Source of the DNA: a virus
IMG/VR virus record: IMGVR_UViG_3300045988_115074
Coordinates: 173,303-237,302 of that record
Length of the DNA: 64,000 nucleotides
Reading direction: 5' to 3' (one strand)
The notes beneath the pieces were generated by a model, which saw only the letters and a program-made list of their open reading frames with translations, made no database searches and had not been told where the DNA came from. The first letter of the stretch is position 1, and the number at the start of each line of letters is the position of its first letter. This document shows positions 11,318 to 45,074 of the stretch, one piece after another. The translations under genes and the position numbers were made by a program.

Positions 11318-12922
11318 AAATGACCATAAAAAATAGCAATTTATGGACATTTAGTACTAACCACCTATTTATGAATTATGTTCAAGTTTTTGAATAACTT
11401 TATAGATAGGTAATTAAAATGTTAAGAAGACACAATGATAAAACCGATGATATCTTTCTGGAAACAGATAAAGACTATTACACAGTAAATATTCAAGGTG
11501 ATATTTTCCATGTAGAAAAATCAGTACCACCATCTGTTAAGCAAGTATTGCCTTTTGAAAAAGAAGGTGAATTCTTTGTAAATATTGAAGGCAAAGAAGT
11601 AAGAATTGCTAATATTGTTAATTTTGTATTTAAGAATACTAATCCTGATTTCTTTTGGGAAATAATGGATTGGGATATAATCTACGTTGATGGTAATAAA
11701 GGTAATCTATATCCATTTAATCTTAGTTGGAATAATACCAATATTAAAGACGATGAAGATGGATTTAGATTAATTCCTGGATTTACTAGATATAAAATTA
11801 ATAGAGAAGGTGTGATTAAAAAAATAAGCAATGGTAGGATAATATCTGACACTCTAGATAAATCATTACGTGTAAAAGCACCTTATGTAAAAAACACCAT
11901 ATGTAGGGATTATGATTTAGTATATAGAAAATGTGGTAAACATAGACTACTAGCATACGCTTATTTACCAATGCCTAATAACTTTTTTGAATTAGATGTT
12001 AGTCACTTAGATTGTAATCCACAGAACAATGACTTATCTAACCTGAGATGGCAAAGTCGTAGAGAAAATAACCTACAGACTGCCAAACAATATCTAATTA
12101 TGGTGCAACAACCCATGTTGGTTTATAACTGCGATACTAAGGAAATTAAAGAATACTTTAGTATTGGAGAGATGCAAAGGCAATTAGGTATCGGTAAAGG
12201 TGTGGGTGAGATGAGATTATTATCTAGAGGCACTGTTAGATATCCAGATGGTTATGCTTATATGTTAAAAAGTGATTTTAATGGTGAATGGCCTGAAGTT
12301 AAATACAATAACAGAAGACCTATTATTAGTTATCCTATTAAAGTTACTATTAAAAAGACTGGTGAAGTAATAACATACAATGGTCTTAATAATTTAGCAA
12401 AAGCACTTGGTACTGGTATAGATAGGTGGCAGCATCGATTGCGTAGACCACCGTTTAAGTGGGAAGATGAGTCTATCATTGTAGAAAAAGATATCGCTAA
12501 TGGTAAACATATCTGTAATTAACATTTTAATACTGGTATAGTATTAAAATCGTTGTCCGCTTCTCTTAGAAATAAGAGAATAGCAAACCCCTCTAATTGA
12601 CGGGAAAACTGTAAAAAGGCTAATACACTAACTATAGGTAGTAATACACTATAGGGCTTAATCTAACCAATTAAGAGATAGTAAAAGAGATTAGTCAATA
12701 CAATAACCCGCAGCGAAGCGCCCTTAGTATTAAGGGTGAACGTTCAGAGACCAGTCGAAAGACGTAGGACTCAAGTGAGTCCCAAATGGGGGGCAGATAC
12801 AGTGGATTTGTAATAAAATACAAATCCTCTATGTATCCTCCTTAGTAGCTTTATAGTTACTTTGGAGTCTTAGCAAGTAATGTTGAAGATGATGATATGG
12901 TCCACTTTCTAGTCCCCGAAAA
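11318..12922 (+). mobile_element. group I intron carrying an HNH homing endonuclease gene, inserted in the beta' DxDGD motif
   Basis: Splits the catalytic motif; 3' part has the group I R-like element GTTCAGAGACCAGTCGAAAGACG and blocks shared with the nrdA intron; 5' junction GAT|AAATG is identical to the beta intron at 17708/17709. The 3' junction is not resolved (no terminal G at the frame-restoring site). Confidence 0.65.
11419..12522 (+). CDS. intron-encoded HNH homing endonuclease
   Basis: ORF track; HLDCNPQNNDLSNLRWQSRRENN is an HNH_3-type H-N-N motif; IPGFTRYKINREGVIKKISNGRII is a NUMOD4-like N-terminal motif; lies wholly inside the interruption of the beta' gene. Confidence 0.8.
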   Translation: MLRRHNDKTDDIFLETDKDYYTVNIQGDIFHVEKSVPPSVKQVLPFEKEGEFFVNIEGKEVRIANIVNFVFKNTNPDFFWEIMDWDIIYVDGNKGNLYPFNLSWNNTNIKDDEDGFRLIPGFTRYKINREGVIKKISNGRIISDTLDKSLRVKAPYVKNTICRDYDLVYRKCGKHRLLAYAYLPMPNNFFELDVSHLDCNPQNNDLSNLRWQSRRENNLQTAKQYLIMVQQPMLVYNCDTKEIKEYFSIGEMQRQLGIGKGVGEMRLLSRGTVRYPDGYAYMLKSDFNGEWPEVKYNNRRPIISYPIKVTIKKTGEVITYNGLNNLAKALGTGIDRWQHRLRRPPFKWEDESIIVEKDIANGKHICN

Positions 12923-13108
12923 AACGATGGGGATATGTGTAACCTTATTTGTTCATTTACTGAGGAATCTAAAAATGAGATTAAACAGTATAAAAAAGAG
13001 AAAAAAGCTTACCTTGATAGCGACGGCAGGATTCGTTATCCCTTGGGCTTTGACACGATTAACTTTGTTTGCCATAATCTTGGTACTTTTGAGGAAAGTG
13101 TGAAATGA
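12923..13108 (+). CDS. RNA polymerase beta'-like N fragment, exon 2
   Basis: Own translation: NDGDMCNLICSFTEESKNEIKQYKKEKKAYLDSDGRIRYPLGFDTINFVCHNLGTFEESVK*. It aligns residue for residue with E. coli [47 protein letters not shown]. The stop overlaps the next ATG (ATGA). Not in ORF track (no ATG). Confidence 0.7.
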   Translation, partial: NDGDMCNLICSFTEESKNEIKQYKKEKKAYLDSDGRIRYPLGFDTINFVCHNLGTFEESVK

Positions 13109-16100
13109 GAATAAACTACAATAACTTTTATCTTAAATTCGGTAATCGAACTGTAGATAAATTACAAGCTCCTAGGATTTTTAATTTATCTAAATTTATT
13201 TTACCGAAACAAAATGCTTTTCATTACTTTGGTAGTACCAGTGATGATGTAGGGCCGAGTAAAACTAACCCTATGTTTGCGGAAACTGTACAGCGTATTC
13301 CTATTTATTTTTACCAAGACTTAATTACGCGTTTAGGTAACATGAATGTACGTGCGTTTATGCCTTTGGAAGTTATTCGTAAATATATTAAACAAAACCA
13401 TAAGTTTATCCCTTGTTACGATTTAAGTAAAGTAAAACCTAATCCTTTAGTACCTGTTATTTTAAACTACGCTATCTGCGATAAAAGATATAAATACTTA
13501 GGTAATGAAATTCGTATTCCTTATTATAAGAATACGAATATTATTAATACCTTTATTAAAGGGATGAAAGACATTTACGATGCCCATGGTGATTATTATA
13601 ATCAGTTTATTTTCTTAAATGTACCTGATTTAAAAGACTTACCAAAAGTATCTGAGATGAAGATGGCTGCGAATGTTACTACTAACGCATTCTTCACTCG
13701 TTTTAATACATTTGAAAAACTCATTATTTTCGAATTGTGGAAATGGTTGGGTTTAAATCGTAATAAGTCTATCTTTAAAAACATTCCTTTAAAAATTCTA
13801 GATAAGATTAACTTTGTTTTTATTAGTAATAATGTCTTTACTTATTATTCTTTAGGTCAATTAGACAGATGGCGTAAATCTGATGAAAATAAATCAGGTA
13901 AACTAGATCCGACTAATATGTCTAAAAACTTTGTTAAAATGCTTATTCAATTAAACAAAGCTTCTATAGATTCTAGTTTGATTGAATTAACTGAAGAAGA
14001 AGTAGTAGAACAAGAAGCTAAAGAGACTGAAGACTTTAAAGGTTCTGATGACGAATCTAATAAAGATAAACAAAGTAAATCATTTACAGATACTAAGGTA
14101 AATGAAAAACCAGTAGATGTAGACGATGTAGATGATACAACTGATGGTACTGATGAATCTGATGTAGAAGAGAATGAAGAAGATAATCTGGATATTAGTG
14201 AAAACATTATCACAGATGATTCTGCTGACTTGACTGTTCAAAAAGATTTAGATATCATTGGCGATATTATCGACGACGAGGATGATACTGACTATTCAGA
14301 ATCTCTTGAATCTAAAGAACAAGAGAAGAAAAGTAATATTAATATTAGCCGAGTAGTCTCTATACCTACTGAGCAAGAAGAGGAATTTAACGATAAGATT
14401 GATACTAATTTAGATGTGTCTGATATCTTAAATGTATCTAAATTACCTATTGAAGAAATTCCTGTCTTAGTAACTAAACCTAAAGAGACAAAAACAGCTG
14501 AAGAGAAAGCCAAAGCTGCTTTAGATTATATTGCCAAAAACCAAAACATGACAGTATCTAAATACGATGGTATTCGTAAATCTATTGGTAAGTATCGTAA
14601 TTTGAAATTAACCAATGACAGTAAAATGACCGTCGGTGAAATGGTTAATACTAAACCTGAAGAATTAGAAATTTCAAATGAAGATAAAGAAGTTTCTACT
14701 TTAAATGTAATGGGTAAGCGCTACATTGAGAAACACTTGGAACGAGATGTAGCAGCAATGATGGTAGGTATTCAAGGTGGTGGTGCGATTGTACACGATA
14801 TACGTAAGCAAACTCATGAAAACATCATGGGTGGTTACGATGTATACTCCATGAAGATTAAACCCATCGAAGGTGAGCAATCTACCATTCGTGTTAAACT
14901 ACCTAGAGTAAACAGCGATGGTAAGTTTAAGGTCAGCGGAGTCGATTACGTACTTAGAAATCAAAGACGAGATCTTCCCATTCGTAAAATTAACGATAGT
15001 ACTGTGGCATTGACTTCTTACTTTGGTAAAACATTTGCTAAACGTGATACTACTCGTCAGTTTAATTACGAGAAATGGTTAATTGGACAAATACGCGCTA
15101 TAGCATTTAATCCAGAATTAGATTCAGTAAAAGAAACACGCAGTGGTGATGTATTTGATAATAATGTAAAAGCTCCAGATATTTACTCTTTATTATCCAT
15201 GCACTTTAGGGCAGTAACCACAAAAGACGCTTTTATCTATTTTGATTATCACAAAGCCAATGAACGTTTTGGTAATGACTTAGTTAGAAGTGTAGAATCT
15301 AAAGGATTATTCTTTGCTGGTAGTTATAAAGGTAAATTTGGCTTAGGTGTTAATGAAGACGGTATTTTCTATTCTGTTATTGGTAATGAAGTAACGGAAC
15401 TAGGTGATATCGAATCCATGTGTGGTATTGATTCATCTAAAGCACCTGTAGAATCAGTAACTATTGATATCATGGGTAAGCCTTTGCCAATTGGTTTAGT
15501 ATTGGGTTATAAACTTGGTCTAACTAAACTGATTGCTGCTTTAAAACCAAAATACTATAAAACAGTCAAAACAGGTACACGTGTTAAATTAGAAAGTCAT
15601 GAATACATGATTAAGTTTTCTGATTTCTCTTTAGTATTATCTCGTAAAGACAGAATGGCTTCATTAATCTTATCTGGTTTAAGTAAGTGTGATACCAGTG
15701 ATACTGCAATAACCCTATTAGATAGAAAAGAAATCTATTTTAATCTATTAGAGTCTATTAAAATTCCAGGACGATATGTTAAAGAAATTGATTTATACAA
15801 CAACATGTTTGTAGACCCGATTACTGAACGTATCTTGATTGAAATGAATGAGCCTACTGATTTTACTGGTTTATTAATTCGTTCTGTTGAATTGTTATTA
15901 ACTCGCTATCATGCTGATGAAGTAGACATGACTGGTCAACGTATTGCCGGTTATGAAAGAATGGCTGGTGAAGTATATAAAGCTATTGTTAATTCATTGC
16001 GTGAGCATAATCGTCATGGTATTAAAGCAAACTATCCAATTGAACTTAACCCTGAAGCAGTATGGATGTCTATCTTAAAAGATACATCTAAACAGACTGT

Positions 16101-16413
16101 AGAGAACTTAAATCCAATTCAAGATTTAAAACAACAAGAAGTAACGACATTTAGTGGTAATGGTGGTCGTGGTAAGAAAAGTATGGTTAAACGTACACGT
16201 ATTCACCACAAGACTTCTATAGGTGTTATTTCAGAAGCTACTGTCGATAGTAGTGATGCTGGTGTAACCACTTATATGTCTGCTAATCCTAAGTTTAAAT
16301 CATTATACGGTTTACCTGAAAATTCTGGTACCGAAGAAGTGAATAAGGATTTAAAACCTGAAAACGTATTCTCTACAGCAATGATGATGTATCCATGCTC
16401 TGATACAGACGAT
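13105..16413 (+). CDS. RNA polymerase beta-like subunit, exon 1
   Basis: ORF track; TFSGNGGRGKKSMVKRTRIHHKTSIGVISEATVDSSDAGV resembles beta [40 protein letters not shown]; ends ..YPCSDTDD (compare FLEHDD|ANRALMG). Confidence 0.85.
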
Positions 16414-16796
16414 TGATTAAATATAAAGATTGGGTCGTCTCTAAACCGTTTGAATTGCGGGGACCTCTCGCTAAGTACTTTGTACCAACCCAGGGTAGCG
16501 ATATACTTGGGGGCAGCTCTAATCAAGCTGATACGGTAAAAAGCAAAGTAATAGAGAAAATCCGCAGCCAAGATTCTGCTTTTGTATATAGTAGAATAAG
16601 GTTCAACGACTATCGAAAGCACGCTTGTTAGTAAATTAGGATTAACAAGTGGAAGTGAGTAGAGTAGGGGGTCTGCACAACGTAGACTCTCCCAAGCTGA
16701 CGGGCCGTAGGTCTAACCAACCTGCGGTATGATATAGTCTACTTAAGAAACGATTAAGCATGAAATACTTTCATATGCGTAATTCGTTCATATGTG
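16414..16796 (+). mobile_element. ORF-less group I intron in beta gene
   Basis: Follows exon U (GAT|); ends ..ATATGTG|; contains the R element GGTTCAACGACTATCGAAAG and the S element GATATAGTCTAC. Removing it restores DTDD-PKRSVFLGTQINHS (compare EHDDANRALMGANMQRQ) in frame. Confidence 0.8.
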
Positions 16797-17708
16797 CCCA
16801 AACGTAGCGTTTTTCTAGGGACTCAGATTAATCACAGCCTATCTACCTCTAATGGTCAGGTAATGCCTCTGCGTACTGGCTATGATGAAAAACTAGTAGA
16901 GCGTTGTAGTGATATGTACGCTTCTACTGCTGAACAAGATGGTGTCGTCACTGATGTTAATGATTTCGGTATTACTGTTACTTATAGAGACGGTAGTACG
17001 AAACAAGTAGAAATCGGTAGACGTTATGGTTCTAGTGGTGGTTTCAATACTGCTCACGATATTACTACTCATTTGAAGAAAGGTGATAAAGTTAAGAAAG
17101 GTGACGCGATAGCGTATAACTCTGACTTCTTTACATCTGACCCAATGAAGCCTGGTAAATTAGCAATGAAAACTGGTGTATTAGGTAAAGTGGCATTGAT
17201 TGAGCATCCATATACTTTTGAAGACTCTACCGCTATTACTCGTAAGTTTGGTGAAAATACCCGTGTAAAAACTGTAGTGAAAAAAGAAGTAGTAGTAAAC
17301 TTTGACCAAAGTATCCATAGACTGGCTAAACCTGGTACTGTAGTTAAGATTGATGACCCATTATGTTATATTGAAGATAGTATTACTCACGATGGTAGTC
17401 TATTTGATGAAAACAGTATTGACTTGTTAAGAAACTTAAGTAAGTCAGCTCCTAAAAGTAGCATTAATGGTGTTATTGATAAAGTAGAAGTATTCTATAA
17501 TGGTGATAAAGAAGATATGTCTGAATCACTAATGAAGATTGCTAATGCTTCTGATAATAAATTGGTTGCTCTACAAAAAGCTTTAGGTAAAAAACCATAT
17601 ACTGGTGAAGTAGATGACACCTATCGCGTAGATGGTAATCCATTACTTGTAGATACTGCTGTAATTGTATTTACTATCAGCAGTAACCAAGGTATTAGTG
17701 TCGGCGAT
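16797..17708 (+). CDS. RNA polymerase beta-like subunit, exon 2
   Basis: PKRSVFLGTQINHS..; VALIEHPYTFEDSTAITRKF resembles [32 protein letters not shown] resembles VSGTVIDVQVF; ends ..ISVGD. Length 912 nt keeps the frame. Confidence 0.85.
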
Positions 17709-18078
17709 AAATGTTAACTTTAATAAAGTGAGTTAACTTGTCCTTCTAGGTAGTAATACCTAGTCGAATGTCCTCTAATTGCTGGAAGTCCCTTAGAGTC
17801 TATTTAACCACAACGTAATTAGAAATAATAAGCGTGAGGGTTTGAGAATAAATAGAATTGGGTAATCAGCAGCTAAGCAGCTAAGTGTTTATTGTTTAAT
17901 TAACATAAGCTGAAAGTTCAACGACTAACCGCTTGCCACGGTGTACATTCAAGTGAATGAAAACGGGGACTTCCCTATAACTGGTAGTTATTGTTATAGG
18001 GAAAAGATATAGTCTTGTCTTACATGAAAGTGTAAGCAGTGTGTAATACACACGGGTAAGAGCTAACGACTCTTATTG
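17709..18078 (+). mobile_element. ORF-less group I intron in beta gene
   Basis: GAT|AAATG 5' junction; ends ..CTTATTG|; R element AGTTCAACGACTAACCGC and S element AAGATATAGTCTTG. Splicing gives VGD-KMSKLVYGCQLKATV (compare [14 protein letters not shown]). Confidence 0.8.
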
Positions 18079-23579: not shown

Positions 23580-24341
23580 ATGTATGTGAATTTTAATGAT
23601 GTCTCTAGATTAGAGATGAGTGTCAATATTCGAGAGATATATAATAGATGTGTTGATGCCATGGGGTATGATGCTATTGATTTGTGTTATAACGATGTTA
23701 TTGATGGGGTATACGATGACAGTAAACAATACTTCCCATTTAATACAGAGACTATTATTGAACATATATTCATGACCATGATAATTGATAAAGGATCATT
23801 GGAAGTATCTCAAATGATTTTAACAGATGAAGTATTAGGTTATTATATTAATAACAATGGTATTTCAACAATAGATTCAATAGCCCAGCAAATGGATGCG
23901 ATGATTAACGATGCAATTGATGACAACGAACTTGTAGACGATGGTGATAAATTAGTAGATAGATTCGGTAATGAGTTAAATGTAGCTATTTCTACTCCTG
24001 TAGAGATTATAGACTTTATTGCTTATTTCTTGTATTTCTTTAATCAATACTTTTACGCGTCATTTACAGAACTATGTGATTACATTATCGATAATGGACA
24101 ACTCTGTATGTCTGTAGTTGTATCTAATGTAGAGACATATACCGATATATTCTATCGACACAGTAATCCTTCTCCTATTCTAGGTAATATTCTGGAGAAT
24201 AATATGTTGTGTAACATCTATTTTGATTTTGATAATGACTCAGTTAAATTACCTGGTTTCAATAACAATGATGTTATTTACGATGGTTCTGTTTCTAATG
24301 AGATTGTGCAATCTGGAGATATTTCGTGGCAAGACATCTGA
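23580..24341 (+). CDS. hypothetical strongly acidic protein (253 aa)
   Basis: ORF track; tightly packed after the previous gene. Confidence 0.7.
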   Translation: MYVNFNDVSRLEMSVNIREIYNRCVDAMGYDAIDLCYNDVIDGVYDDSKQYFPFNTETIIEHIFMTMIIDKGSLEVSQMILTDEVLGYYINNNGISTIDSIAQQMDAMINDAIDDNELVDDGDKLVDRFGNELNVAISTPVEIIDFIAYFLYFFNQYFYASFTELCDYIIDNGQLCMSVVVSNVETYTDIFYRHSNPSPILGNILENNMLCNIYFDFDNDSVKLPGFNNNDVIYDGSVSNEIVQSGDISWQDI

Positions 24342-24814
24342 TTAATATTGAAAGTCTCTATGGGTTTTCTGCTGATGAATTAGGTAAACTAATTTATAAG
24401 AAAGATACCAAAGAAGATATTCAATTTATTCTAGAAGTAGCTATTAGTGGTACTTATATTTTCAATAAAGCTTTAACTATTGAAGATGCTGAATACTTAA
24501 GCGATGTTGCTTATAAGAAGTATTTAGATAGAATCAGTATTCAAGATACAAATGGTTTAGATGAATCTTATCTTTACTCAATGTATAAAGAAAACATACC
24601 TACTACTAATGGCGAACTTTATATTAAAAATTTATTAAGGAACGTATTTGCTGAGATTATCTGCAATGGAATGTTTGATGTAATAGGAACTGTTCTAGTG
24701 GGATTTGAACAAGTCCTTAACTCACAACTGAGTTGGAATAAAACTCGAGTTATCCATTCAGGTATATTTGAGCTTAGTGTTGAGGTGATAGACAATGGAC
24801 AGAAATCTGGTTGA
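24326..24814 (+). CDS. hypothetical protein (162 aa)
   Basis: ORF track; GTG start with GGAG 7 nt upstream; overlaps its neighbours. Confidence 0.6.
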   Translation: MARHLINIESLYGFSADELGKLIYKKDTKEDIQFILEVAISGTYIFNKALTIEDAEYLSDVAYKKYLDRISIQDTNGLDESYLYSMYKENIPTTNGELYIKNLLRNVFAEIICNGMFDVIGTVLVGFEQVLNSQLSWNKTRVIHSGIFELSVEVIDNGQKSG

Positions 24815-31069: not shown

Positions 31070-32131
31070 ATGAATAAAGTAATATACGGCATTACTGCAA
31101 ATACTAAAGTATTAACGACAGATGGTTTTAAGGAGGTAATTAACTTATCTAAAGATGATATTATTATATCAGAAAACAGTGTAGATGCTACTGTATTGGA
31201 TATCCAACAGGAAGGTTATAATAACACACATTATGTTATTCTAGAAGATGGTAGAGGTGTTGAATTAGGTGATAACTATCAGTTAGATTACATAATTGCC
31301 AAGTCTAGAATCAAACTACGCACTAGTCCAATATCTTCTATCAATATTCCTGATAATACTTTTATCAAGTTAAAGTTAATTGATAGTCCTTATAGAACCA
31401 CTGTGAATGATACTGACTTAATTCCACCTTACACAATGGGCGTATTACTAGGTAATGGCTATTGTAACAATTATAACTTAGAATTAAGTTCTCCTTACGA
31501 TGAGTTATTTGAAAAAGTAAGTAATGAATTAACCGATGATAATCTAAGAGTATCTATGGTTAAAGAGTTACAAGGTACTAAGAGAGCTTTAATTGTAAGG
31601 AAAAAAGAGTATAACCATAATCATGATATTAAGAACAGTTATCGAGAGAAGTATTTGTCGTATGGATTAGGTGGTTTACTAGCTAATAGTAAGTTTATTC
31701 CTGATGAATACCTTTATAAGATTAACTTAAAACAAAGAATAGAATTAATTAGAGGACTATTAGATACAGATGGTAATGTCTCTCCTTCTAAGAGTATTAG
31801 ATTTAATACTGTAAGCCATAGGTTAGCTAAAGGGTTACAATATCTAGTTTGGTCTATTGGTGGTAGATGTGCCACGAGGAAAGAGATTATGGCACCACAC
31901 AGAGTAACACATCAAGACGTATATTGGGTATATATTAACTATGTCGATTTTATTAAGTTATTTACTGTAGGTAAGAAATTGAATAGATTGAAAGATAGAA
32001 GATATTTACCTAATAAAGATAAATGGATTAAAGTATCTTCTATTGAGAAATCAAATAGAGAAGTACTTACTTATAGTATTACTTTAGATAAAGATGTTAG
32101 GTTAATTACTGATACGTATATAGGAATTTAA
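31070..32131 (+). CDS. free-standing LAGLIDADG homing endonuclease with intein-like (Hint) flanks
   Basis: Two LAGLIDADG motifs (MGVLLGNGYC, LIRGLLDTDGNV); N-terminus GITANTKVLTTDGFKEVINL and NNTHYVILEDG look like intein blocks A and B; C-terminus VLTYSITLDKDVRLITDTYIGI looks like blocks F and G but lacks the terminal HN; own SD and ATG. Confidence 0.8.
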   Translation: MNKVIYGITANTKVLTTDGFKEVINLSKDDIIISENSVDATVLDIQQEGYNNTHYVILEDGRGVELGDNYQLDYIIAKSRIKLRTSPISSINIPDNTFIKLKLIDSPYRTTVNDTDLIPPYTMGVLLGNGYCNNYNLELSSPYDELFEKVSNELTDDNLRVSMVKELQGTKRALIVRKKEYNHNHDIKNSYREKYLSYGLGGLLANSKFIPDEYLYKINLKQRIELIRGLLDTDGNVSPSKSIRFNTVSHRLAKGLQYLVWSIGGRCATRKEIMAPHRVTHQDVYWVYINYVDFIKLFTVGKKLNRLKDRRYLPNKDKWIKVSSIEKSNREVLTYSITLDKDVRLITDTYIGI

Positions 32132-33431: not shown

Positions 33432-33842
33432 TGGTCCGCGAGGTGGGACTCGAACCCACACGACCTATGGTCGAAAGATTTTCTTACTACTCTTGCTTTC
33501 ACAAGCCTGGTATAGTTATCAGTTGTAGTCTGGACTATATCATTACCTTCAACTTTACTTGCTAAGGTATCCTGAGCGTAGTCTCTGAACCTTCCTCTTA
33601 TCCTACTTAAAGACTTAGAGGCTCGGCTGCTGATTGACCAATTTCCGATATTCTTATAACTTTCGTATTCGTCGTTTCCAACCACACTGTAGTCATCGGA
33701 ACTATAAGGTTATTCCAGCAGTTTCCAGGATTCTCATCTATATATTTCTATATAGCGGCTCTATGTTCATCTAAATATCAGTTAAGATATTAAGACTACT
33801 ATACTAAAGTCTTTTATGTCTACCCAATTCCATCACTCGCGG
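33432..33842 (-). tRNA. tRNA-Leu: tRNA-Leu(UAA) interrupted by a group I intron (exons 33842-33807 and 33482-33432)
   Basis: The joined exons give an 87-nt class II tRNA: acceptor CCGCGAG/CTCGCGG, D arm ATGGAATTGGGTAGACAT, anticodon stem AAAGA/TCTTT, loop CT-TAA-AA, long variable arm CGACCATAGGTCG, T arm GTGGGTTCGAGTCCCAC, encoded CCA. Confidence 0.8.
33483..33806 (-). mobile_element. group I intron in the tRNA-Leu(UAA) anticodon loop (between nt 34 and 35)
   Basis: 324 nt; follows an exon U and ends in G; R element GGTTCAGAGACTACGC and S element ATGATATAGTCCAGAC; the first 15 nt can pair with exon AAGACT (P1). Confidence 0.75.
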
Positions 33843-33965: not shown

Positions 33966-34049
33966 TGGTGGAGGGAGTAGGATTTGAACCTACGAACCTT
34001 TCGGGGCGGATTTACAGTCCGCTGGATTTAACCACTCTCCAATCCCTCC
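33966..34049 (-). tRNA. tRNA-Tyr: tRNA-Tyr(GUA)
   Basis: Folded by hand: acceptor GGAGGGA/TCCCTCC, anticodon arm GCGGA-CTGTAAA-TCCGC, long variable arm, T arm GTAGGTTCAAATCCTAC, CCA. Confidence 0.85.
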
Positions 34050-34257
34050 AGTTAATTTAATAACCCCATCCTTCAGTACATATAATAGAATTCATGGTAT
34101 TATCTCCTAATTGGGTATACTCTTACAGGATTTACCTGCATCTACCACCGTAGGTTACGTTTGTCCGAAAGCATTGATACAAGCGGTTTGAAGTAGAAGA
34201 TGTGCTTTTACGTAACTATTGGTGATTGTTTTATTTTAAACTAAAGAGTACATTAAC

Positions 34258-34332
34258 TGGCGCACCTAGAAAGATTCGAACTCTCACTAAAGGTATAGAA
34301 CACCCTTGTGCTATCCATTACACTATAGATGC
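34258..34332 (-). tRNA. tRNA-Arg: tRNA-Arg(UCU)
   Basis: Folded by hand: acceptor GCATCTA/TAGGTGC (one G-U), anticodon arm AGGGT-GTTCTAT-ACCTT, T arm GAGAGTTCGAATCTTTC, CCA; 75 nt. Confidence 0.8.
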
Positions 34333-34339
34333 TAATAAC

Positions 34340-34425
34340 TGGTGCGTGAGGAGAGACTCGAACTCTCACTCCTTTCGGAACAAGGACCTAAACCTTGCGT
34401 GGCTGCCTGATTTCACCACTCACGC
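34340..34425 (-). tRNA. tRNA-Leu: tRNA-Leu(UAG)
   Basis: Folded by hand: acceptor GCGTGAG/CTCACGC, anticodon arm CAAGG-TTTAGGT-CCTTG, long variable arm, T arm GAGAGTTCGAGTCTCTC, CCA. Confidence 0.85.
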
Positions 34426-34585
34426 TCATTTTCATATATAGAGAAGATATAGAAAATATTATTTAGTTTTTAAAAATAGCTCTTCAACATATATTCTAGA
34501 ATAATTCAGATATATACTACTATAGTGAAAGAGAAGAGTAAACTTCTTATTTAACTATTTTACTATTTATATAAAGGAAATTACT

Positions 34586-34913
34586 ATGTTGACTTTTAAA
34601 CAAAAATCCGCTTGGATTCTCCGTAACCAAGGTCGTGTTATCCGTTTTGCTAAAGCTATTGAAGCTTTGGAAAACACTGTATCTAAAAACAAAGCTCACA
34701 AACAGTGCGTGGAGTACAACTTCCACCGTACTGAAATTATTCGTTGGTTCTCCTAGCGAATACAATTCTTTATTTGCTAAATACGAGAACGATATCGCTA
34801 CCATCGATACCAGCATTGAATCTGGTGAACGTAAAGTGAATCGTATGAAATCTGTTGCACAAAAATTACGTGCACATGAGAAAGTAATCTATACTTTACC
34901 ACACACTTGGTAA
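34586..34913 (+). CDS. hypothetical protein encoded in two frames (56-aa frame 0 to TAG at 34754, continuing in +1 frame to 34913)
   Basis: TATATAAAGGAAATTACTATG box at 34586; frame 0 gives MLTFKQKSAWILRNQGRVIRFAKAIEALENTVSKNKAHKQCVEYNFHRTEIIRWFS*; the +1 frame from 34755 gives SEYNSLFAKYENDIATIDTSIESGERKVNRMKSVAQKLRAHEKVIYTLPHTW*; a terminator follows. Confidence 0.5.
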
Positions 34914-34929
34914 GGTGTAGATCAAAAAA

Positions 34930-34960
34930 GAAACCCCTTAATCGGGATTTCTTTTTTTTT
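34930..34960. terminator. hairpin plus T9 run between convergent genes
   Basis: GAAACCCC-TTAATC-GGGATTTC then TTTTTTTTT. Confidence 0.75.
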
Positions 34961-34965
34961 GCTTT

Positions 34966-35526
34966 TTATTTCTTTTCTTCAAATGATTTCCAAATACCAA
35001 TAGATGTAGCAATCATCATCATCTTGTCAGAACCTACTACAGTGTCATCTAACTTCCAACCTAATCTAATTCTAAGGCATTTATCTTTTCTAAATGGATA
35101 ACGGTAGATTAAATAGAATTCCCAAACACCATTTTCATTATATTGGAATAATACACCTTCACAACCGTGGTCTGAAGTATCTGGATTACCATGATTAATT
35201 AAACATTTACCGATTGGTCTACCTAGGTAATAGTAATCAAACCAATAGCCTTTATTGCGCCATAACCATGCTGTACGACGTTTAAACTTAATAAAGGTAG
35301 TATCACCAGGCCATCTCTCTAAATGCCATTGATCACCGTCTATAGGGTTATCGTGAGTTAACCAAGGTGTAAAGACTTTAGGTACGTTACCTTCTTTATT
35401 GGTTAAACTAAATAAAGCAATAATAGGCCCTAATGGATAAGAGAGTAGACTTACTACTGTAGAGATAATAAACAAAGGAATAAAAAGAATAAGGTTCTTA
35501 ATGAGTTTAAAATAAATGTGATTCAT
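34966..35526 (-). CDS. hypothetical membrane-anchored protein (186 aa)
   Basis: ORF track; two N-terminal hydrophobic helices. Confidence 0.7.
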   Translation of the reverse strand: MNHIYFKLIKNLILFIPLFIISTVVSLLSYPLGPIIALFSLTNKEGNVPKVFTPWLTHDNPIDGDQWHLERWPGDTTFIKFKRRTAWLWRNKGYWFDYYYLGRPIGKCLINHGNPDTSDHGCEGVLFQYNENGVWEFYLIYRYPFRKDKCLRIRLGWKLDDTVVGSDKMMMIATSIGIWKSFEEKK

Positions 35527-35600
35527 ATTTTGTCTTTCTTAACTGTTAATAGATAGTGTGAATAATCATACAAATTAAAAAAGAAACATAAGGAAATACT

Positions 35601-35630
35601 ACTCTCTACTCCTATTTTGGAGTAGAGAGT
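35601..35630. terminator. hairpin ACTCTCTACTCC-TATTTT-GGAGTAGAGAGT
   Basis: Read directly; lies between the tRNA-like element and the gene start at 35526. Confidence 0.6.
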
Positions 35631-35865
35631 AATACTTAAGAATAGGGGTGAAACAAAACCACCGAGTCACCAGCCTCTAGGAAATGAAAGGATATACACT
35701 ACTATCCTATATAACCTTTAGTAGAGGGTTTGAATTAACTTTAGTCTTTCAACTTTCTATCTTTAATTCGTATAAATAATCTTTAAGCTTTAGTATCTTT
35801 CGAACTTTAAACTTTTAGCTTTTATCCATTCGCTATTGGGCAATCTCTATTTACCCAAATATATA

Positions 35866-35937
35866 TTTCCTTAGGGTGAGTCGAACACCCGACACACTGT
35901 TTAACTGACAGTTGCTCTACCACTGAGCCATAAGGGG
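35866..35937 (-). tRNA. aberrant tRNA-like element (Asn GUU-like)
   Basis: Canonical D arm GCTCAGTGGTAGAGC, anticodon arm ACTGT-CAGTTAA-ACAGT, T arm GGGTGTTCGACTCACCC; but position 33 is A rather than U, and acceptor pairs 1-72 and 2-71 are C-A mismatches. Confidence 0.4.
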
Positions 35938-37578: not shown

Positions 37579-38604
37579 TTAAGTATACAAGTATTCTGTT
37601 AAAATATTACCTAGAAGATTACGACACTTAATCTCTACATTACTTACATCGTAACTTAGTTCAGACATATCCAAGTCAACACCTAACAGTCTAGGGAATT
37701 CACATCCACAGTAATAGATTTGGTTGACTCTTTGTCTTTTCAATTCTTCAATTTGTTCTTTAAACTTCTCGTCTTGATTATAACGAGAAGCAATACCTGT
37801 TTTAACTACGTAAGAAACAATATCAAATAACTTCTTACCACTAGGTAATACGTTAGTGCGTTTAGTAGTAATGTACTCTATCAAATCTTTTTTAGTCGAT
37901 TCTATAAAACCATTATAGTCTCTTGGTCTTACTGTGTCACTCATTAGGTTAAAATCTACATAATCGTAAATGGCTTCTAGTACATTGGTATATTGTTTTA
38001 ATTCACCTAAAGGAGAGTCCATAAGTACTGGTCTCTCACCTACAATACCTAATGGGCTAGAGCCTTTAAACCAATAAGCATTACCATGTACCTTATCTTC
38101 TGTAAACATAGCATTAAATCGATTAGGACACTTACTGGAGTCAATACAGAACGTAAATAGTACTTTGGTATTAAATAACTCTTTCTCTATTCTTTCTTGA
38201 AATTCTAACCAAGATTGTTCATTTAAAAAACAATTGACGATAGGGATTCTTAATTCGTCAATACAATGTCCAATTCCATTGTCTTCAAAATAACCTTTTT
38301 CAAACTTTTTTAAAGCATGGATAAATACATCCATGTTAAACTCAAATGGTTTATCGACAATAGCATAAGGAATGCTCACTAGATTCACATTCTCAGTACT
38401 AAAACACCAATAACCATTTTCACTAAAGTAATCATCTTCTAGTTCTTTAAACATACCATACCAAAGAGGATACATTTCTTTAAAGACTTCTGTAACTCTT
38501 ACTGAATTCTCATCAGGTAATCCTTCGTAACATACTGGTACTGCTAAGTTTGTTAAACTAACATCACAATCGAATAAACTTCGCTCTATAAATCGGACAG
38601 ACAT
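37579..38604 (-). CDS. hypothetical protein (341 aa)
   Basis: ORF track; AAGGTAG SD; no motif recognised. Confidence 0.7.
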   Translation of the reverse strand: MSVRFIERSLFDCDVSLTNLAVPVCYEGLPDENSVRVTEVFKEMYPLWYGMFKELEDDYFSENGYWCFSTENVNLVSIPYAIVDKPFEFNMDVFIHALKKFEKGYFEDNGIGHCIDELRIPIVNCFLNEQSWLEFQERIEKELFNTKVLFTFCIDSSKCPNRFNAMFTEDKVHGNAYWFKGSSPLGIVGERPVLMDSPLGELKQYTNVLEAIYDYVDFNLMSDTVRPRDYNGFIESTKKDLIEYITTKRTNVLPSGKKLFDIVSYVVKTGIASRYNQDEKFKEQIEELKRQRVNQIYYCGCEFPRLLGVDLDMSELSYDVSNVEIKCRNLLGNILTEYLYT

Positions 38605-38660
38605 ATCTTCTACCTTCTTAAGTTATGTTTTCATTGATAAGCAAAAGAACATAAAAAATA

Positions 38661-38692
38661 CACTATACTCAGGTGGCCACCTGAGTATAGTG
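38661..38692. terminator. 32-bp perfect palindrome CACTATACTCAGGTGGCCACCTGAGTATAGTG
   Basis: Read directly; on the minus strand it is followed by TATTTTTTAT, so it is the better terminator for leftward transcripts from the gene-free region. Confidence 0.6.
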
Positions 38693-39286
38693 TTTATAAA
38701 ATCAACTTTAGGATTAACAAAATCAAAAATACTAATTCAATACTTTACTAAGCACGTCTTATCCCATAATTTGCTTTTAAGAAACATTCTCCACATAACG
38801 TGCGTTTACAAACGAGTTAAGACTTATTCTCAAGACCGGTATTTATAAGGTTCTTAACCTGAGTTAGATTAACCATCAAAAGGACACTATTTAGGTTTAC
38901 TATCGTATCCTTGTGGTTTAAACCCTAATCACCTTATAACGAGCCTTAATCAAAATCTTTCAATCGTTATCTTTACGTTTAGGTTAGTAAAGGATTAAAC
39001 TTTCATAGAGATTCATAAAAAAGGATTGTTCAATTTCATTACTTAGTTTTTAGTTTCAGTATTCAAAATTATGTTTAAGCATATATATAGACCTACAAAT
39101 AAAAATAAAATCGCGCGAAACATACTTGGGTAGCTGCGCGATACAGGAGCGCCGTGCATCATGGTGGATACCAGACTTGTGTATCTTTGTTACCTATCTT
39201 AAGCGAACGCTTGTTGGATTTATCCTGTTATTGATTCTCTTATCCTCACCTGTTGCCTAGCAACCATCTTCTAAGTACGAATAACA

Positions 39287-39330
39287 CTATCCTCTTTATC
39301 GCCTCTTTAGGCGTATGCTAAAGAGGATAG
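39287..39330. other. nested perfect hairpin CTATCCTCTTTA-TCGCCT-CTTT-AGGCGTA-TGC-TAAAGAGGATAG
   Basis: Read directly; part of a GC-richer hairpin cluster at ~39100-39335. Confidence 0.6.
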
Positions 39331-39360
39331 GGTTAAGAGGATTAGAAGATATTAAAAACC

Positions 39361-39445
39361 CATACTCACTCACGGATACTAACGTCGTAGACAGAATAAT
39401 GGATACTACCACTTGTAATTCATTTATTCGAGTGAGTGAGTATAG
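39361..39445. repeat. structured unit 1 of a tandem pair
   Basis: Closing stem ATACTCACTCAC/GTGAGTGAGTAT around a core beginning GGATACTA and ending CATTTATTCGA. Confidence 0.65.
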
Positions 39446-39468
39446 CATTAGTTGTACAACTCAAGAAA

Positions 39469-39553
39469 CCAAATACCACTACGGATACTAGTGCCACAGG
39501 CGAATAGAGGTATACCTTCTTGGATATACCATTTATTCGAGTAGTGGGATTTG
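39469..39553. repeat. structured unit 2 of a tandem pair
   Basis: Same core ends (GGATACTA ... CATTTATTCGA) but a different self-complementary closing stem CAAATACCACTAC/GTAGTGGGATTTG. Confidence 0.65.
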
Positions 39554-39741
39554 TGTAATGGTTGTAAACCTTTTACAAATAGTCTTTGGTTTATCCAAAG
39601 ACGTTAGTAACGTGCGTTGCTTCATTTGTCTTTTTATATCCTTTTATATCTTCTTGTTTAAGCAACGTAGTTACAAGAGAAAGCTTATGCTTTCTCTCTT
39701 TACTTATTTTTTATTTGTTTTTTATTTTTTTCTTTCTTTTT

Positions 39742-39833
39742 AGACTACTATATTATGAAACGAAGAGTGACCTTTCGAATGAAGTGATAACGGAATGAGG
39801 CGGGGAGCGATGAGTGGAATAATATAGTAGTCT
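39742..39833. other. 15-bp stem AGACTACTATATTAT/ATAATATAGTAGTCT closing a 62-nt loop, flanked on both sides by TTTCTTTCTTTTT
   Basis: Read directly. Confidence 0.6.
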
Positions 39834-39848
39834 TTTTCTTTCTTTTTT

Positions 39849-39907
39849 GGGGGGAAAGGGGGGTGGAGGAGGAAGAGGGTTGTTAGGGAGAAGGAGGAGG
39901 AGGGGGG
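39849..39907 (+). repeat. 59-nt purine/G-rich tract with G6, G6, G3, G3, G6 runs and repeated GGAGG
   Basis: GGGGGGAAAGGGGGGTGGAGGAGGAAGAGGGTTGTTAGGGAGAAGGAGGAGGAGGGGGG, unique in this AT-rich window. Confidence 0.8.
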
Positions 39908-39920
39908 AAAACCCCCCTTT
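39902..39920 (+). terminator. GGGGGG-AAAA-CCCCCC hairpin followed by TTT
   Basis: Read directly; only the plus-strand version is followed by U residues. Confidence 0.5.
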
Positions 39921-39938
39921 AAAATTTAACATAAAACC

Positions 39939-40003
39939 ATACGCTACAGCGTAGGGTTTACCCATTCCTTAATATACGCTCTAGCGTAGGGTATAATTAC
40001 CCC
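39939..40003 (+). promoter_or_regulatory. two tandem copies of ATACGCT-NN-AGCGTAGGGT-N3-7-ACCC upstream of the 40087 gene
   Basis: 39939-39963 and 39974-40003; each holds a TACGC/GCGTA palindrome plus a GGGT/ACCC pair. Confidence 0.5.
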
Positions 40004-40086
40004 TATTATCCATTCTAGCTAAGCTTATGAATGATTACTTTATAGTCGTTCTAATGTACATTTAACCCCTATAAGGAATATTAAAG

Positions 40087-40827
40087 ATGTCTAACCGTCA
40101 AAAACAACGCGGTAATAACCGCAATGGTATGAATCCTGCTAATGCAGAACCTATCCAGCTAGAAGAAGCAGAAGACTTGGAAGTATCTACTGAGGACTCT
40201 CCTTCCATTGAAGAAGGTCGTGAATACACTACCAATGATATTCTTCTACCAGATGCTACTGAGGAAATCCACAATCCTTCTGTAGACTTAGAACAAGAGC
40301 AAGAAGCAGACCGCCTTCGCCATGTAAAAGGTGAACTAGATGTAGATGAAGTACTAGGTTTAGTAAGCCTTACTGCTCGTATGTCTTTACTTGGCATTAT
40401 CGACTATATCGATAAGATGAATTCTTTCAAAGGCGTTATTCGTGTCCTAATGAATGATAAAGGTTTTGTGACTAATCAAGGCCCTATCATGCAAGCAGAA
40501 CTCTTCCGTAACATTATGGACATTATCACTAAGACTTCAGACTTAGATTTCCGCTACTCTATGGACTTACTGATGCAGTTGTTCGTAAAACATGGTAAAG
40601 AAGGTCAACCTCTTAACATCTTCTCTCTCATGCGTTTCCAAGAGAACATTCGTCTTGACTTAGTAGAACAGCAATGTTATCCTAACTTAATGACCATGCT
40701 ATCTGTATTAGCAGACCCTACTACTCGTAGTAGCAAAATCAATAAAGAAATTGATATGGGTCGTGCATTGCAATACGGCTTTAGTGAAATGGCTCGTAAT
40801 CGTCTTTTGGCTTACTTCGGACGCTAA
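40087..40827 (+). CDS. hypothetical protein (246 aa) with an acidic N-terminal third
   Basis: ORF track; AAGGA SD. Confidence 0.75.
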   Translation: MSNRQKQRGNNRNGMNPANAEPIQLEEAEDLEVSTEDSPSIEEGREYTTNDILLPDATEEIHNPSVDLEQEQEADRLRHVKGELDVDEVLGLVSLTARMSLLGIIDYIDKMNSFKGVIRVLMNDKGFVTNQGPIMQAELFRNIMDIITKTSDLDFRYSMDLLMQLFVKHGKEGQPLNIFSLMRFQENIRLDLVEQQCYPNLMTMLSVLADPTTRSSKINKEIDMGRALQYGFSEMARNRLLAYFGR

Positions 40828-43664: not shown

Positions 43665-45074
43665 ATGACTAAAATGACTAACATTGCCCTGGCCGTAATT
43701 GCTGCTGCTGCATCTACTACTGTGTTGGCAGACAATTCAGTAACAGGTACCTACCATGTTACTCAAGGTGATAAAATCACTGTAACTGGTAGTGGTAATA
43801 CCACCGTAGGTACAGACCTGGTAAACAAAGGTCTCTCCAATACCGCATTCGGTATCCATAACACTGTCGAAGGTAAAGACAGTGTAGTAGGTGGCCAACG
43901 TGCACAAGTGAAAGGCGATATGTCTGTTGCCATTGGCCATCACGCACAAGCTCTGGAATCAATGAATACAGCCATTGGTTCCGAAGCTTCTGCTATTGCT
44001 CAATCCTCTACCGCTATTGGTAAAGGTACCCGTACTTTAGGTATTGCCTCTACTGCCGTAGGTGCTCATGCTACTGCTGAACAAAATTCTGATGTAGCCA
44101 TGGGTTTGCACGCTAATGCCAAGGGTGGTCAATCAACCGCTATCGGTCAATCTACTACTGCTGAAGGTGGTCAGTCTACCGCGATTGGTTCAGGTGCTAC
44201 CTCTACTGGTCGTTTTTCTGTGGCTGTAGGCACAAATGCTAAAGCCAATAATGAGCATGATGTAGCTATTGGCTCTTTCTCTACTACAGAGAAAGCCGTA
44301 GGTACTTCTAGCGCCATTATTAATGGTGTAGAATACGGTACATTCAAAGGTCATAAACCTGTAGCTACTGTATCTGTAGGTAAAGAAGGTAGCGAGCGTA
44401 CCATTACCAATGTAGCTGCCGGTCGCGTTTCTGCCGAATCTACTGATGCAATCAATGGTTCTCAACTCTATTCTGTTGCTACTAAAGTAAGTGACAACAC
44501 AGCTTCTGTTGAAATCCTGAAAGAAGCAGTAGCAAGCAATGAAAGCAGTATCGCTGTTAATGCTAACCGCATTACTAGTAACACTCAAGCAATCCAAGGT
44601 ATTAACAACACCATTAACCAACACACTACTTGGAACGAAGCTCAAGATGACCAAATCGCTGAGCTGCGTAAACTCGTGAATGGTTTGCATGGTGACAATG
44701 CCGAAATCCGTAAAGAGCTTCACGATAACCGACGCGAAGCACGTGCAGGTATTGCTGGCGCTAACGCAATCGCTGCTATCCCACAACCTCACGCCCCTGG
44801 TCAAACGGCTATCGGTGTCGGTGCAGGCTACTTCAAAAACGAGGGTGCCGCAGCTGTTGGTGTTTCCCATATTTCTGATTCTGGTAAATGGGTATCTAAA
44901 GCTGGTATCAACGTAGACACTCGCCGTAACATTGGTATTGGTCTTGGCCTCTCTTATGTATTCGGTGGCGTAAAAGTACCTGTACAAACCAAAGAAGTGG
45001 TACATGAAGTAGTGCGTGAAGTGATTGTACGTGAAGTACCAGCACAACCTACTACTAAACGTATTCGTGGTTAA
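43665..45074 (+). CDS. YadA-type trimeric autotransporter adhesin-like protein with signal peptide
   Basis: Signal peptide MTKMTNIALAVIAAAASTTVLA; repeated S.A.G..A.A...S.A.G head motifs; neck ERTITNVAAGRVSAESTDAINGSQLYSV; coiled stalk; anchor GQTAIGVGAGYFKNEGAAAVGVSHISDSGKWVSKAGINVD..IGIGLGLSYVF. Confidence 0.85.
   Translation: MTKMTNIALAVIAAAASTTVLADNSVTGTYHVTQGDKITVTGSGNTTVGTDLVNKGLSNTAFGIHNTVEGKDSVVGGQRAQVKGDMSVAIGHHAQALESMNTAIGSEASAIAQSSTAIGKGTRTLGIASTAVGAHATAEQNSDVAMGLHANAKGGQSTAIGQSTTAEGGQSTAIGSGATSTGRFSVAVGTNAKANNEHDVAIGSFSTTEKAVGTSSAIINGVEYGTFKGHKPVATVSVGKEGSERTITNVAAGRVSAESTDAINGSQLYSVATKVSDNTASVEILKEAVASNESSIAVNANRITSNTQAIQGINNTINQHTTWNEAQDDQIAELRKLVNGLHGDNAEIRKELHDNRREARAGIAGANAIAAIPQPHAPGQTAIGVGAGYFKNEGAAAVGVSHISDSGKWVSKAGINVDTRRNIGIGLGLSYVFGGVKVPVQTKEVVHEVVREVIVREVPAQPTTKRIRG

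Follow-up and report, generated by a model that had tools for sequence, protein, structure and literature searches.

Tandem three-way-junction elements in a conserved non-coding block of a jumbo-phage clade: candidate domains of a phage non-coding RNA

Two adjacent elements, designated U1 and U2, were analysed in a 64,000-nucleotide (nt) stretch of viral DNA (IMG/VR record IMGVR_UViG_3300045988_115074, positions 173,303 to 237,302; subsequently called the window, to which coordinates refer). They reside in a 1.5-kilobase (kb) gene-free region between divergent genes of a jumbo phage and share one three-way-junction fold, in which pairing is kept through compensatory base changes. It is very probable that U1 and U2 represent a structured nucleic-acid element on which purifying selection acts, and they are most likely part of an undescribed phage non-coding RNA (ncRNA). 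According to the explanation that we favor, with a probability of roughly one half, a dedicated phage ncRNA contains them as two paralogous three-way-junction domains; this RNA would be transcribed rightward and would expose the junction as a docking surface.

A common fold with compensatory pairing in U1 and U2

The original prediction, made from the DNA letters alone, described a tandem pair of ~85-nt units with about 50 nt inside each. The tandem pair is real, but the units measure 82 and 84 nt and 39 nt separate the boundary strings. The pair is composed as follows:

39362-39443, + strand: U1, 82 nt; arms and core ATACTCACTCAC / GGATACTA...TTTATTCGA / GTGAGTGAGTAT
39444-39469, + strand: linker between U1 and U2, 26 nt, with a small variable hairpin (AGTTG-TA-CAACT)
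39470-39553, + strand: U2, 84 nt; arms and core CAAATACCACTAC / GGATACTA...TTTATTCGA / GTAGTGGGATTTG

Both cores are exactly 58 nt long and follow the gapped pattern GGATACTA-N41-TTTATTCGA, which occurs twice in the window against an expectation of 0.00 derived from 100 shuffles. The inner boundaries had been described as conserved and are indeed identical in the two units, the shared strings ACGGATACTA and CATTTATTCGAGT being slightly longer than first stated. It was also correctly recognized that each outer arm pairs with its own partner: the closing arms of U1 form 12 base pairs (bp) with 100% complementarity and those of U2 form 13 bp with a single A.G mismatch, which is replaced by C-G in about half of the relatives. 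In contrast, the arms are not "entirely different", since 5 of the 12 aligned pairs of the closing helix are the same in U1 and U2, while the other 7 do differ.

The two units have a common fold, which consists of the closing helix P1, the mini-hairpin P2 and the bulged hairpin P3, with a 10-nt junction strand J1/2 between P1 and P2 and the dinucleotide GA as junction strand J3/1 after P3. All parts are given for the + strand:

39362-39373 with 39432-39443, + strand: U1 P1, 12 bp
39374-39383, + strand: U1 J1/2, GGAUACUAAC
39384-39392, + strand: U1 P2, GUC-GUA-GAC
39394-39429, + strand: U1 P3, 6 bp, U bulge, 5 bp, A bulge, 2 bp, 8-nt loop
39430-39431, + strand: U1 J3/1, GA
39470-39482 with 39541-39553, + strand: U2 P1, 13 bp, with the A.G mismatch in this genome
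39483-39492, + strand: U2 J1/2, GGAUACUAGU
39493-39501, + strand: U2 P2, GCC-ACA-GGC
39502-39538, + strand: U2 P3, 7 bp, A bulge, 6 bp, A bulge, 2 bp, 5-nt loop
39539-39540, + strand: U2 J3/1, GA

In both units J1/2 is composed of GGAUACUA and two variable bases, and P2 is a 3-bp stem with a 3-nt loop, separated from P3 by no more than one unpaired nucleotide. P3 follows a common plan: starting from a conserved base of GAAUA/UAUUC, it continues through a 3' bulge of one nucleotide, a second helix and a bulged A to a tip of 2 bp and the loop. When both units were folded as RNA, as the original prediction had proposed, energies of -26.3 kcal/mol (U1) and -27.6 kcal/mol (U2) were obtained, corresponding to z scores of -4.4 and -4.75, and none of 200 shuffled sequences folded equally well.

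Comparison of the units provided the evidence that this fold is maintained. In a model-guided alignment, standard pairs occupy 96% of the cells, compared to 29-46% when the 3' partners are slid by 1-3 columns. Between U1 and U2, 12 of the 28 base pairs are changed on both sides with pairing kept, and these double changes are spread over P1, P2 and P3, whereas almost none appear in the slid-partner controls. RNAalifold independently yielded the same three helices. Moreover, a covariance model trained on U1 sequences alone retrieved U2 with 40-47 bits (E~1e-8) and thus the units are structural homologs rather than being merely alike at their edges. The pattern is compensatory pairing and not a plain duplication, as had been proposed from the sequence of this one genome, and it is not a mobile element either.

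Two side-by-side copies, each bounded by inverted repeats, could in principle also be inverted repeats that arose by chance, the product of a plain tandem duplication or a miniature transposable element. However, the core pattern has an expectation of 0.00, further copies are lacking and compensatory changes are found in three helices. Divergent arms combined with identical inner edges are the reverse of what characterizes a miniature inverted-repeat transposable element, and with just two copies per genome an origin from such an element or from an insertion sequence was rejected. The probability of this whole group of explanations is close to nil.

Distribution in one phage clade and the surrounding non-coding block

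The phage is of the phiKZ/AR9-like jumbo type with a genome of about 235-243 kb. Its recognizable genes include split multisubunit RNA-polymerase genes and those for an S80 prohead protease, DHFR, dCTP deaminase and NrdA, and its nearest cultured relatives are Burkholderia and Ralstonia jumbo phages with ~38-41% amino-acid identity. Related contigs were gathered from IMG/VR, JGI/ENA metagenomes, Logan and GTDB, using as queries the 341-amino-acid (aa) protein encoded to the left of the units, the 246-aa protein encoded on the other side and DNA patterns. The contigs come from human oral or gut samples, for instance those of the ERZ77xxxx, SRR15667091 and SRR8369661 cohorts. U1 and U2 are both present in 21 of 21 related contigs spanning this intergenic part, all from ~240-kb phiKZ/AR9-like jumbo phages. 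In these 21 contigs the units are always in tandem with starts 108-109 nt apart, and their orientation relative to the neighbouring genes is constant. Each genome carries two copies, with none further in the window or elsewhere in these genomes. Outside the clade, U1 and U2 were found neither in four degenerate-pattern scans of IMG/VR nor in one scan of 185,579 GTDB species genomes, in which pattern matches were filtered by P1 complementarity or with the covariance model and the other matches failed. The lone GTDB match is a phage contig binned into a metagenome-assembled genome (MAG) of Gemella. Likewise, megablast and blastn searches with the region gave no match in 50,697 phage records.

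Within the clade U1 and U2 are near-invariant, and most of the changes that do occur are structure-neutral or restorative. G.U alternates with G-C twice and A.G with C-G in P1 of U2, and pair 2 of P3 in U1 presents the series A-U, A.C, G-C. The junction has one variant (GGAUACUA to GGAUGCUA); one loop change and one bulge change complete the list. Covariation of the closing stem in further homologs, the absence of which would have spoken against the original prediction, is seen only weakly, as the homologs are all close relatives and P1 is invariant except at the one A.G/C-G site.

The units are embedded in a conserved non-coding block, which is part of a longer series of structured features:

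39267-39349, + strand: U0, a module of ~83 nt with its own closing stem (-33 kcal/mol), 12 nt upstream of U1
39279-39678, + strand: conserved non-coding block, ~400 nt, comprising most of U0, U1, U2 and three further hairpins
39554-39577, 39582-39602 and 39614-39668, + strand: the three further hairpins
39676-39741, + strand: intrinsic-terminator-like hairpin (9-bp stem at 39676-39697) with a long T-rich tract
39742-39833, + strand: GA-rich hairpin with a 15-bp closing stem and a helix with five GA/GA-type internal loops

Nucleotide diversity (pi), computed across 14 aligned genomes, amounts to 0-0.04 in the block, compared to 0.07-0.145 in the remaining intergenic DNA and 0.03-0.14 in the flanking genes, documenting purifying selection on the block. 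Its least conserved part is the linker between U1 and U2 (pi 0.07). The region from 39100 to 39735 is strongly structured (z = -7.9). A coding function of the block was ruled out, because frameshifts or stops interrupt every small open reading frame (ORF) of the region in several relatives. The ribosome-binding context TATAAAGGAA, which precedes real + strand genes, does not occur on the + strand of the region.

Organized as a chain of self-contained modules, the region contains U0, U1, U2, the three hairpins and the terminator in succession. U0 is essentially invariant in the aligned genomes (pi 0.00-0.01) and escapes the U1/U2 covariance model; its closing stem is followed by ACGAAUAAC, which bears a faint likeness to ACGGAUACUAAC of U1. 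In the hairpin at 39582-39602 the loop is flipped in some relatives (L090 and L125), GG-TTTAT-CC being replaced by its exact reverse complement GG-ATAAA-CC. This inversion is a DNA-level flip across the inverted repeat.

The GA-rich hairpin downstream of the terminator carries four GA/GA loops and one GAA/GGA loop and is followed by a T run. In the close clade, 10 of its pairs exhibit compensatory double changes (C-G to G-C, A-U to G-C and others, in either direction), and three U.G pairs are invariant; these U.G pairs and the five GA/GA-type loops suit the + strand alone. Its folding energy is -30.2 kcal/mol on the + strand versus -18.9 kcal/mol on the - strand. The hairpin has no Rfam match and probably represents either an elaborate terminator or a structured RNA of its own. 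A relative of it is kept in the distant clade (L095 564-654; also L096, L097 and L099-L102). Further downstream, a purine/G-rich tract (39848-39907 and 39855-39920; GGGGGGAAAGGGGGGTGGAGGAGG...GGGGGG) with G-quadruplex potential runs into a G6/C6 hairpin at its end. With a pi of ~0.02 the tract is highly conserved, and the distant clade has a similar tract at the same relative position (L095 ~895-960).

In these distant relatives, whose 246-aa protein is 46-57% identical, neither covariance model detected the units with a significant match, and no known RNA family was found in their non-coding region. Some of them possess a different three-way-junction element at the syntenic place (L095 680-766), which is composed of P1, AAAUAGY, a 5-bp P2 with a GUA loop and a bulged P3, and which has an "AC-N8-GU-A" tip in common with U1. 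With filters switched off, this element is the top match of the U1/U2 model, but it scores only 16 bits (E 0.005 in 1.7 kb), so that homology to U1 and U2 is a possibility at most. Upstream of the 246-aa homolog, the distant relatives have ~3.7 kb (L096 1670-5444) that are devoid of ORFs of at least 70 aa except one of 77 aa and contain several closed elements, e.g. a 13-bp stem around a CA-rich 43-nt loop.

Two further features define the left flank:

38660-38693, - strand: terminator- or attenuator-like palindrome, perfect 17+17 bp, followed by ATTTTTTATG on the - strand
37579-38604, - strand: divergent 341-aa orphan gene, with relatives in the U1/U2-carrying clade only

All relatives of the 341-aa protein fall into a single 90%-identity cluster, which has 432 member sequences. 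Searches of Pfam, PHROGs and PDB sequences were negative, as was tblastn against the 50,697 phage records, and by all appearances the gene is tied to U1 and U2 through co-distribution only. On the right flank, a rightward operon of ~22 kb with structural and lysis genes follows. The 246-aa neighbour protein matches only Ralstonia jumbo phages in the phage database (32%).

Elsewhere in the window, the RNA-polymerase beta-like gene (13105-18036) is split by group I introns (Rfam matches at 16373-16757 and 17720-18036) and a third group I intron is located beside the transfer RNA (tRNA) cluster (33512-33778, - strand). Endonuclease ORFs lie nearby (HNH, 11419-12522; LAGLIDADG-like, 31070-32131). 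In the structural operon, the ORF at 43665-45074 combines YadA head, stalk and membrane-anchor domains, i.e. the architecture of a trimeric autotransporter adhesin. This hints at a diderm host, at odds with the binning of one related contig into the Gemella MAG.

Terminators, strand and the choice between RNA and DNA

The hairpin and T-rich tract at 39676-39741, with which the conserved block ends, resemble an intrinsic terminator of the + strand and are probably the 3' end of a + strand transcript. The T-rich tract varies in length among relatives, several of which (L112, L120, L121, L113, L089 and L124) have a further terminator-like hairpin inserted on one side or the other of the conserved one. 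These additional hairpins have stems of different sequence (GGGAAAG/CTTTCCC, GGAAAGC/GCTTTCC), with a T/C-rich tail after each. On the opposite strand, the palindrome at 38660-38693 precedes the start of the 341-aa gene by 56 nt, and its loop alone varies in relatives. It is a terminator or attenuator in front of that gene, so a leftward transcript could also pass through the region.

The 246-aa gene is preceded by the best sigma-70-like site of the region (39969-39997; TTAATA-17-TATAAT). The perfect palindrome TACGCTnnAGCGTA is present there in two copies 35 bp apart (39939-39997) and nowhere else in the window; the second copy overlaps the spacer of the promoter-like site. The two palindromes look like operators controlling the 246-aa gene. 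Since this gene has its own promoter-like site and operators, the conserved block is not simply its 5' untranslated region. Two other promoter candidates were rejected. An AT-rich box at 39078-39092 resembles the consensus of AR9 early promoters (PMC5312081), but it does not recur in the window. The over-represented TATAAAGGAA motif turned out to be the ribosome-binding context of real genes.

A + strand RNA is favored by the context, namely by the terminators and the neighbouring GA-rich hairpin, and not by the units themselves. In the latter, the wobble-type pairs are split 2:2 between the strands: two G.U pairs in the window sequence speak for the + strand and two A.C pairs in relatives, which correspond to G.U on the opposite strand, for the - strand.

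This even split is one of several observations that count against a dedicated rightward ncRNA. The + strand has an energy advantage of just 2-3 kcal/mol in the units, and DNA parameters also predict the helices, although more weakly (z = -2.5 and -5.2). No promoter was found for the block, a sigma-70-like site upstream of it being absent as well. The double changes stem essentially from one comparison, that of U1 with U2, and two variants weaken pairs, namely U.U at pair 2 of P3 in U2, seen in some genomes, and A.C at pair 1 of P3 in U1, seen in others. The family is limited to one narrow phage clade and lacks the phylogenetic depth normally required of an RNA family. Finally, no binding partner was identified, and the AlphaFold single-sequence model of the 341-aa neighbour was unusable (predicted local distance difference test score of 37).

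Some of these points would suit a DNA-level element at a strand switch, whose cruciforms or single-strand hairpins would take part in recombination, in packaging or in starting replication. Whichever strand is folded, the energies of the units are similar, and leftward and rightward genes diverge from this region. Besides many inverted repeats, it holds a 40-nt T-rich tract and a G-rich tract, and the loop flip described above occurs in a nearby hairpin. In addition, 8 of 12 distant-relative loci (L091, L094, L095, L097-L100 and L102) reach the contig end ~0.6-2 kb upstream of the 246-aa homolog, which suggests a hard-to-assemble or terminal region. However, protein-recognized DNA hairpins do not typically contain a bulged three-way junction whose invariant junction sequence is asymmetric and strand-specific, the z scores for DNA folding are rated weaker than those for RNA, and the GA-rich hairpin and the terminators are clearly strand-specific features of RNA type. 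Regular spacing as in iterons is missing as well, with GGATAC copies 27 and 82 nt apart. On balance, we regard a role at the DNA level as quite improbable.

A second alternative places U1 and U2 in a cis-acting leader, either as a tandem riboswitch or as a processive antitermination RNA of put/EAR type acting on the transcribing polymerase. Its target would be the 22-kb structural/lysis operon on the + strand or the terminator at 38660-38693 and the 341-aa gene on the - strand. Terminator-like hairpins are indeed located downstream on both strands (39676-39697 on the + strand, 38693-38660 on the - strand), a long co-oriented operon follows on the + strand, and the wobble evidence is compatible with the - strand. 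There is also precedent in tandem aptamers and two-hairpin antiterminator RNAs, i.e. the glycine riboswitch and HK022 put. The put RNAs are stacked-hairpin phage RNAs of ~70 nt, of which two copies per genome lie upstream of terminators and long operons. U1 and U2 resemble them as two copies of a structured phage element in such a position, but put sites consist of two hairpins without a closing helix, each following its own promoter, while U1 and U2 are adjacent, have closing stems of 12-13 bp and are followed by multiple terminators. These two or three successive + strand terminators look built to stop transcription and not for read-through, and the + strand gene, 530 nt away, has its own promoter-like site and operators. 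The distance from the units to the terminator is ~120 nt on the + strand, with other hairpins in between, or 670 nt on the - strand. P1 is far stabler than a ligand-gated P1, alternative pairing between P1 and a terminator was not seen, and no riboswitch or leader family of Rfam matches. A riboswitch role in particular is unlikely, because P1 is too long and stable and an adjacent expression platform is missing; for leader function as a whole, we consider the case doubtful.

Known RNA classes, proposed mechanism and meaning

The original prediction could not assign the units to a known RNA class, and database scans led to the same result. The 4227 models of Rfam 15, run over the whole window at gathering thresholds, gave no match overlapping 39361-39553, and a permissive scan of 38600-40100 (E<=10) returned chance-level matches of microRNA and small nucleolar RNA type only. 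ARAGORN detected no tRNA at the units but four elsewhere (33966-35937, - strand); the acceptor stem of a tRNA has 7 bp, compared to 12-13 bp in the closing stems of U1 and U2. Literature searches on structured ncRNAs of jumbo phages turned up nothing relevant.

In motif content, the nearest known RNA is TwoAYGGAY (RF01731), with AYGGAY in two loops, tandem GAs in a stem and an external stem, and for which a role as CsrA sponge was proposed (PMC4333381). U1 likewise has AYGGAY twice, as ACGGAU at the boundary of P1 and junction and as AUGGAU within P3, whereas U2 has ACGGAU and UUGGAU. Both units have an enclosing external stem, P1, and possibly tandem G.A pairs, the latter being suggested by the juxtaposition of GA and GA at the junction. 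However, TwoAYGGAY presents its motif in the terminal loops of two hairpins, while U1 and U2 have it where P1 meets J1/2 and within the stem of P3, the RF01731 model did not match the units at E<=10, and the enrichment of GGA in the conserved block is only ~2-fold.

Other structured RNAs share the architecture in part. The phi29 packaging RNA (pRNA) is a phage RNA of ~120 nt with a three-way junction and a paired 5'/3' terminal helix, which serves as an oligomeric protein-binding scaffold. It belongs to small phi29-like podoviruses with terminal-protein packaging and needs two loops pairing between molecules. Three-way junction and paired ends are common to U1 and U2, but their P2 is a 3-bp mini-hairpin and loop complementarity in both units is absent (GUA/UAC in U1 only). 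The present phage moreover is phiKZ/AR9-like, and no similarity in sequence or model was found. Y RNA/YrlA and adenovirus VA RNA are stable protein-binding or decoy RNAs with a long stem of paired ends and a conserved protein site by a structured central domain. U1 and U2 recall this type in their paired termini and conserved junction, without any defining feature beyond; Rfam gave no Y_RNA or YrlA match, and the neighbouring genes scanned include no Ro/Rsr gene. ROOL and GOLLD are ornate ncRNAs of several hundred nucleotides from phages and prophages, of unknown function and located near tRNA genes. A multi-domain block of ~400-600 nt at 3.4 kb from a tRNA cluster is reminiscent of them, but it has no Rfam match, is a chain of independently closed ~83-nt modules and is far more narrowly distributed. 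Finally, GA on both junction strands beside P1 could give tandem sheared G.A pairs as in a kink-turn (k-turn) or k-junction, and the neighbouring hairpin contains five GA/GA loops. The standard 3-nt bulge of the k-turn is absent in U1 and U2, where at most one G is present.

Several more specific candidates were dismissed. In U1 and U2 the P1 arms are followed by GG, which would be compatible with the branching G just after a1 in the flanking inverted repeats (a1/a2) of retron RNAs, although this feature is not specific. No reverse transcriptase domain, as expected beside a retron RNA, was found in neighbouring ORFs (Pfam, PHROGs), and the flanks are non-coding for more than 500 nt. Integron attC sites (RYYYAAC...GTTRRRY) do not correspond to the arm ends ...CTCAC/GTGAGTG and ...ACTAC/GTAGTGG; cassettes are missing, and the units are just 26 nt apart. 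Within the ORF at 24326-24814, the string CTAGTGGGATTTG (24695-24707) matches the 3' arm of the U2 P1 in 12 of 13 positions, so the 5' arm of U2 is complementary to that messenger RNA. As an antisense target it is marginal, with ~0.08 matches expected by chance and the arm being buried in P1.

A new class of small self-cleaving or self-processing ribozymes, of which two copies would cut a precursor into unit-length RNAs, would fit the general layout: like the hammerhead, the units are three-way junctions of ~80 nt with a near-invariant junction and free helices. They are placed in tandem on one putative transcript, and the phage also carries three group I introns. However, no Rfam ribozyme, including hammerhead, hairpin, twister, twister-sister, pistol, hatchet and HDV-like ribozymes, matched at E<=10 over 1.5 kb, the hammerhead core strings CUGANGA and GAAA are absent by direct reading, and the sequence gives no sign of a cleavage site. 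We therefore rate ribozyme activity as very unlikely.

A still smaller chance is given to a decoy that mimics a host RNA (CRISPR repeat, tRNA or antitoxin RNA) against host defence, as the original prediction had speculated. Phage RNA anti-CRISPRs and pseudo-antitoxins provide a general precedent and the element is specific to one phage clade. There is, however, neither a tRNA-like fold nor an Rfam match, and no mimicked host RNA was found in the 185,579 species genomes, which yielded the one phage contig in a MAG only. Units of 82-84 nt with a three-way junction bear no resemblance to CRISPR repeats of 28-37 nt or type III antitoxin repeats of 36-45 nt. The sole lead, a string beside the GA-rich hairpin resembling the LwaCas13a repeat (the repeat sequence was verified in the literature), is at chance level, as 83 of 200 shuffles scored as well.

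For a dedicated ncRNA, the following mechanism can be proposed. Transcription would begin within the 1.5-kb intergenic region between the divergent genes and stop at the terminator at 39676-39741. A long and stable P1 (12-13 bp) would close each domain, leaving the distal helices free to vary around a nearly invariant junction, made up of GGAUACUA on the 5' side, GA on the 3' side and the bases of P2 and P3, the latter being GAAUA/UAUUC. The combination of invariant junction, variable distal helices and stable closing stems argues for a folded RNA domain with the junction as functional surface. GGATAC is enriched in the region, as 4 of its 14 + strand copies in the window lie within 600 nt, and AYGGAUACUA occurs three times. 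P1 and P3 may stack coaxially via two sheared G.A pairs between the GA of J1/2 and that of J3/1, as suggested by the sequence, which would result in a rod of ~28 bp from which a knob of UACUA and P2 protrudes. This invariant knob would be the docking site for a protein or another RNA, and two copies per transcript would provide two identical sites, for a dimeric partner or for titration; the RNA would then function as scaffold or titrator. The long closing stems and AU-rich linkers could stabilize the modules, possibly after excision from a precursor. Going further, U1 and U2 together with U0 and the GA-rich hairpin might form a new class of jumbo-phage ribonucleoprotein RNA, either with k-junction-like knobs that titrate or scaffold a CsrA- or L7Ae-type protein, or as new self-processing ribozymes that release the modules. 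We put this forward as a speculative and rather improbable extension.

U1 and U2 are a new family within a known kind, the structured phage ncRNAs of unknown function, from one uncultured jumbo-phage clade. Their present importance is moderate, since the element is clade-restricted and its function putative. A role at the DNA level would turn U1 and U2 into markers of a replication or packaging region, in a group of phages whose sites of this kind are unmapped. The phiKZ/AR9-like jumbo phages carry their own multisubunit RNA polymerases, and their ncRNAs are almost unexplored. The locus offers at least four independently supported structured modules in a block that lacks genes and changes more slowly than the genes beside it, in a phage clade that recurs in human-associated metagenomes. 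If expressed, the modules would make a compact candidate RNA family, new and with a conserved junction that is well defined, and U1 and U2 would serve as a marker for this uncultured phage group.

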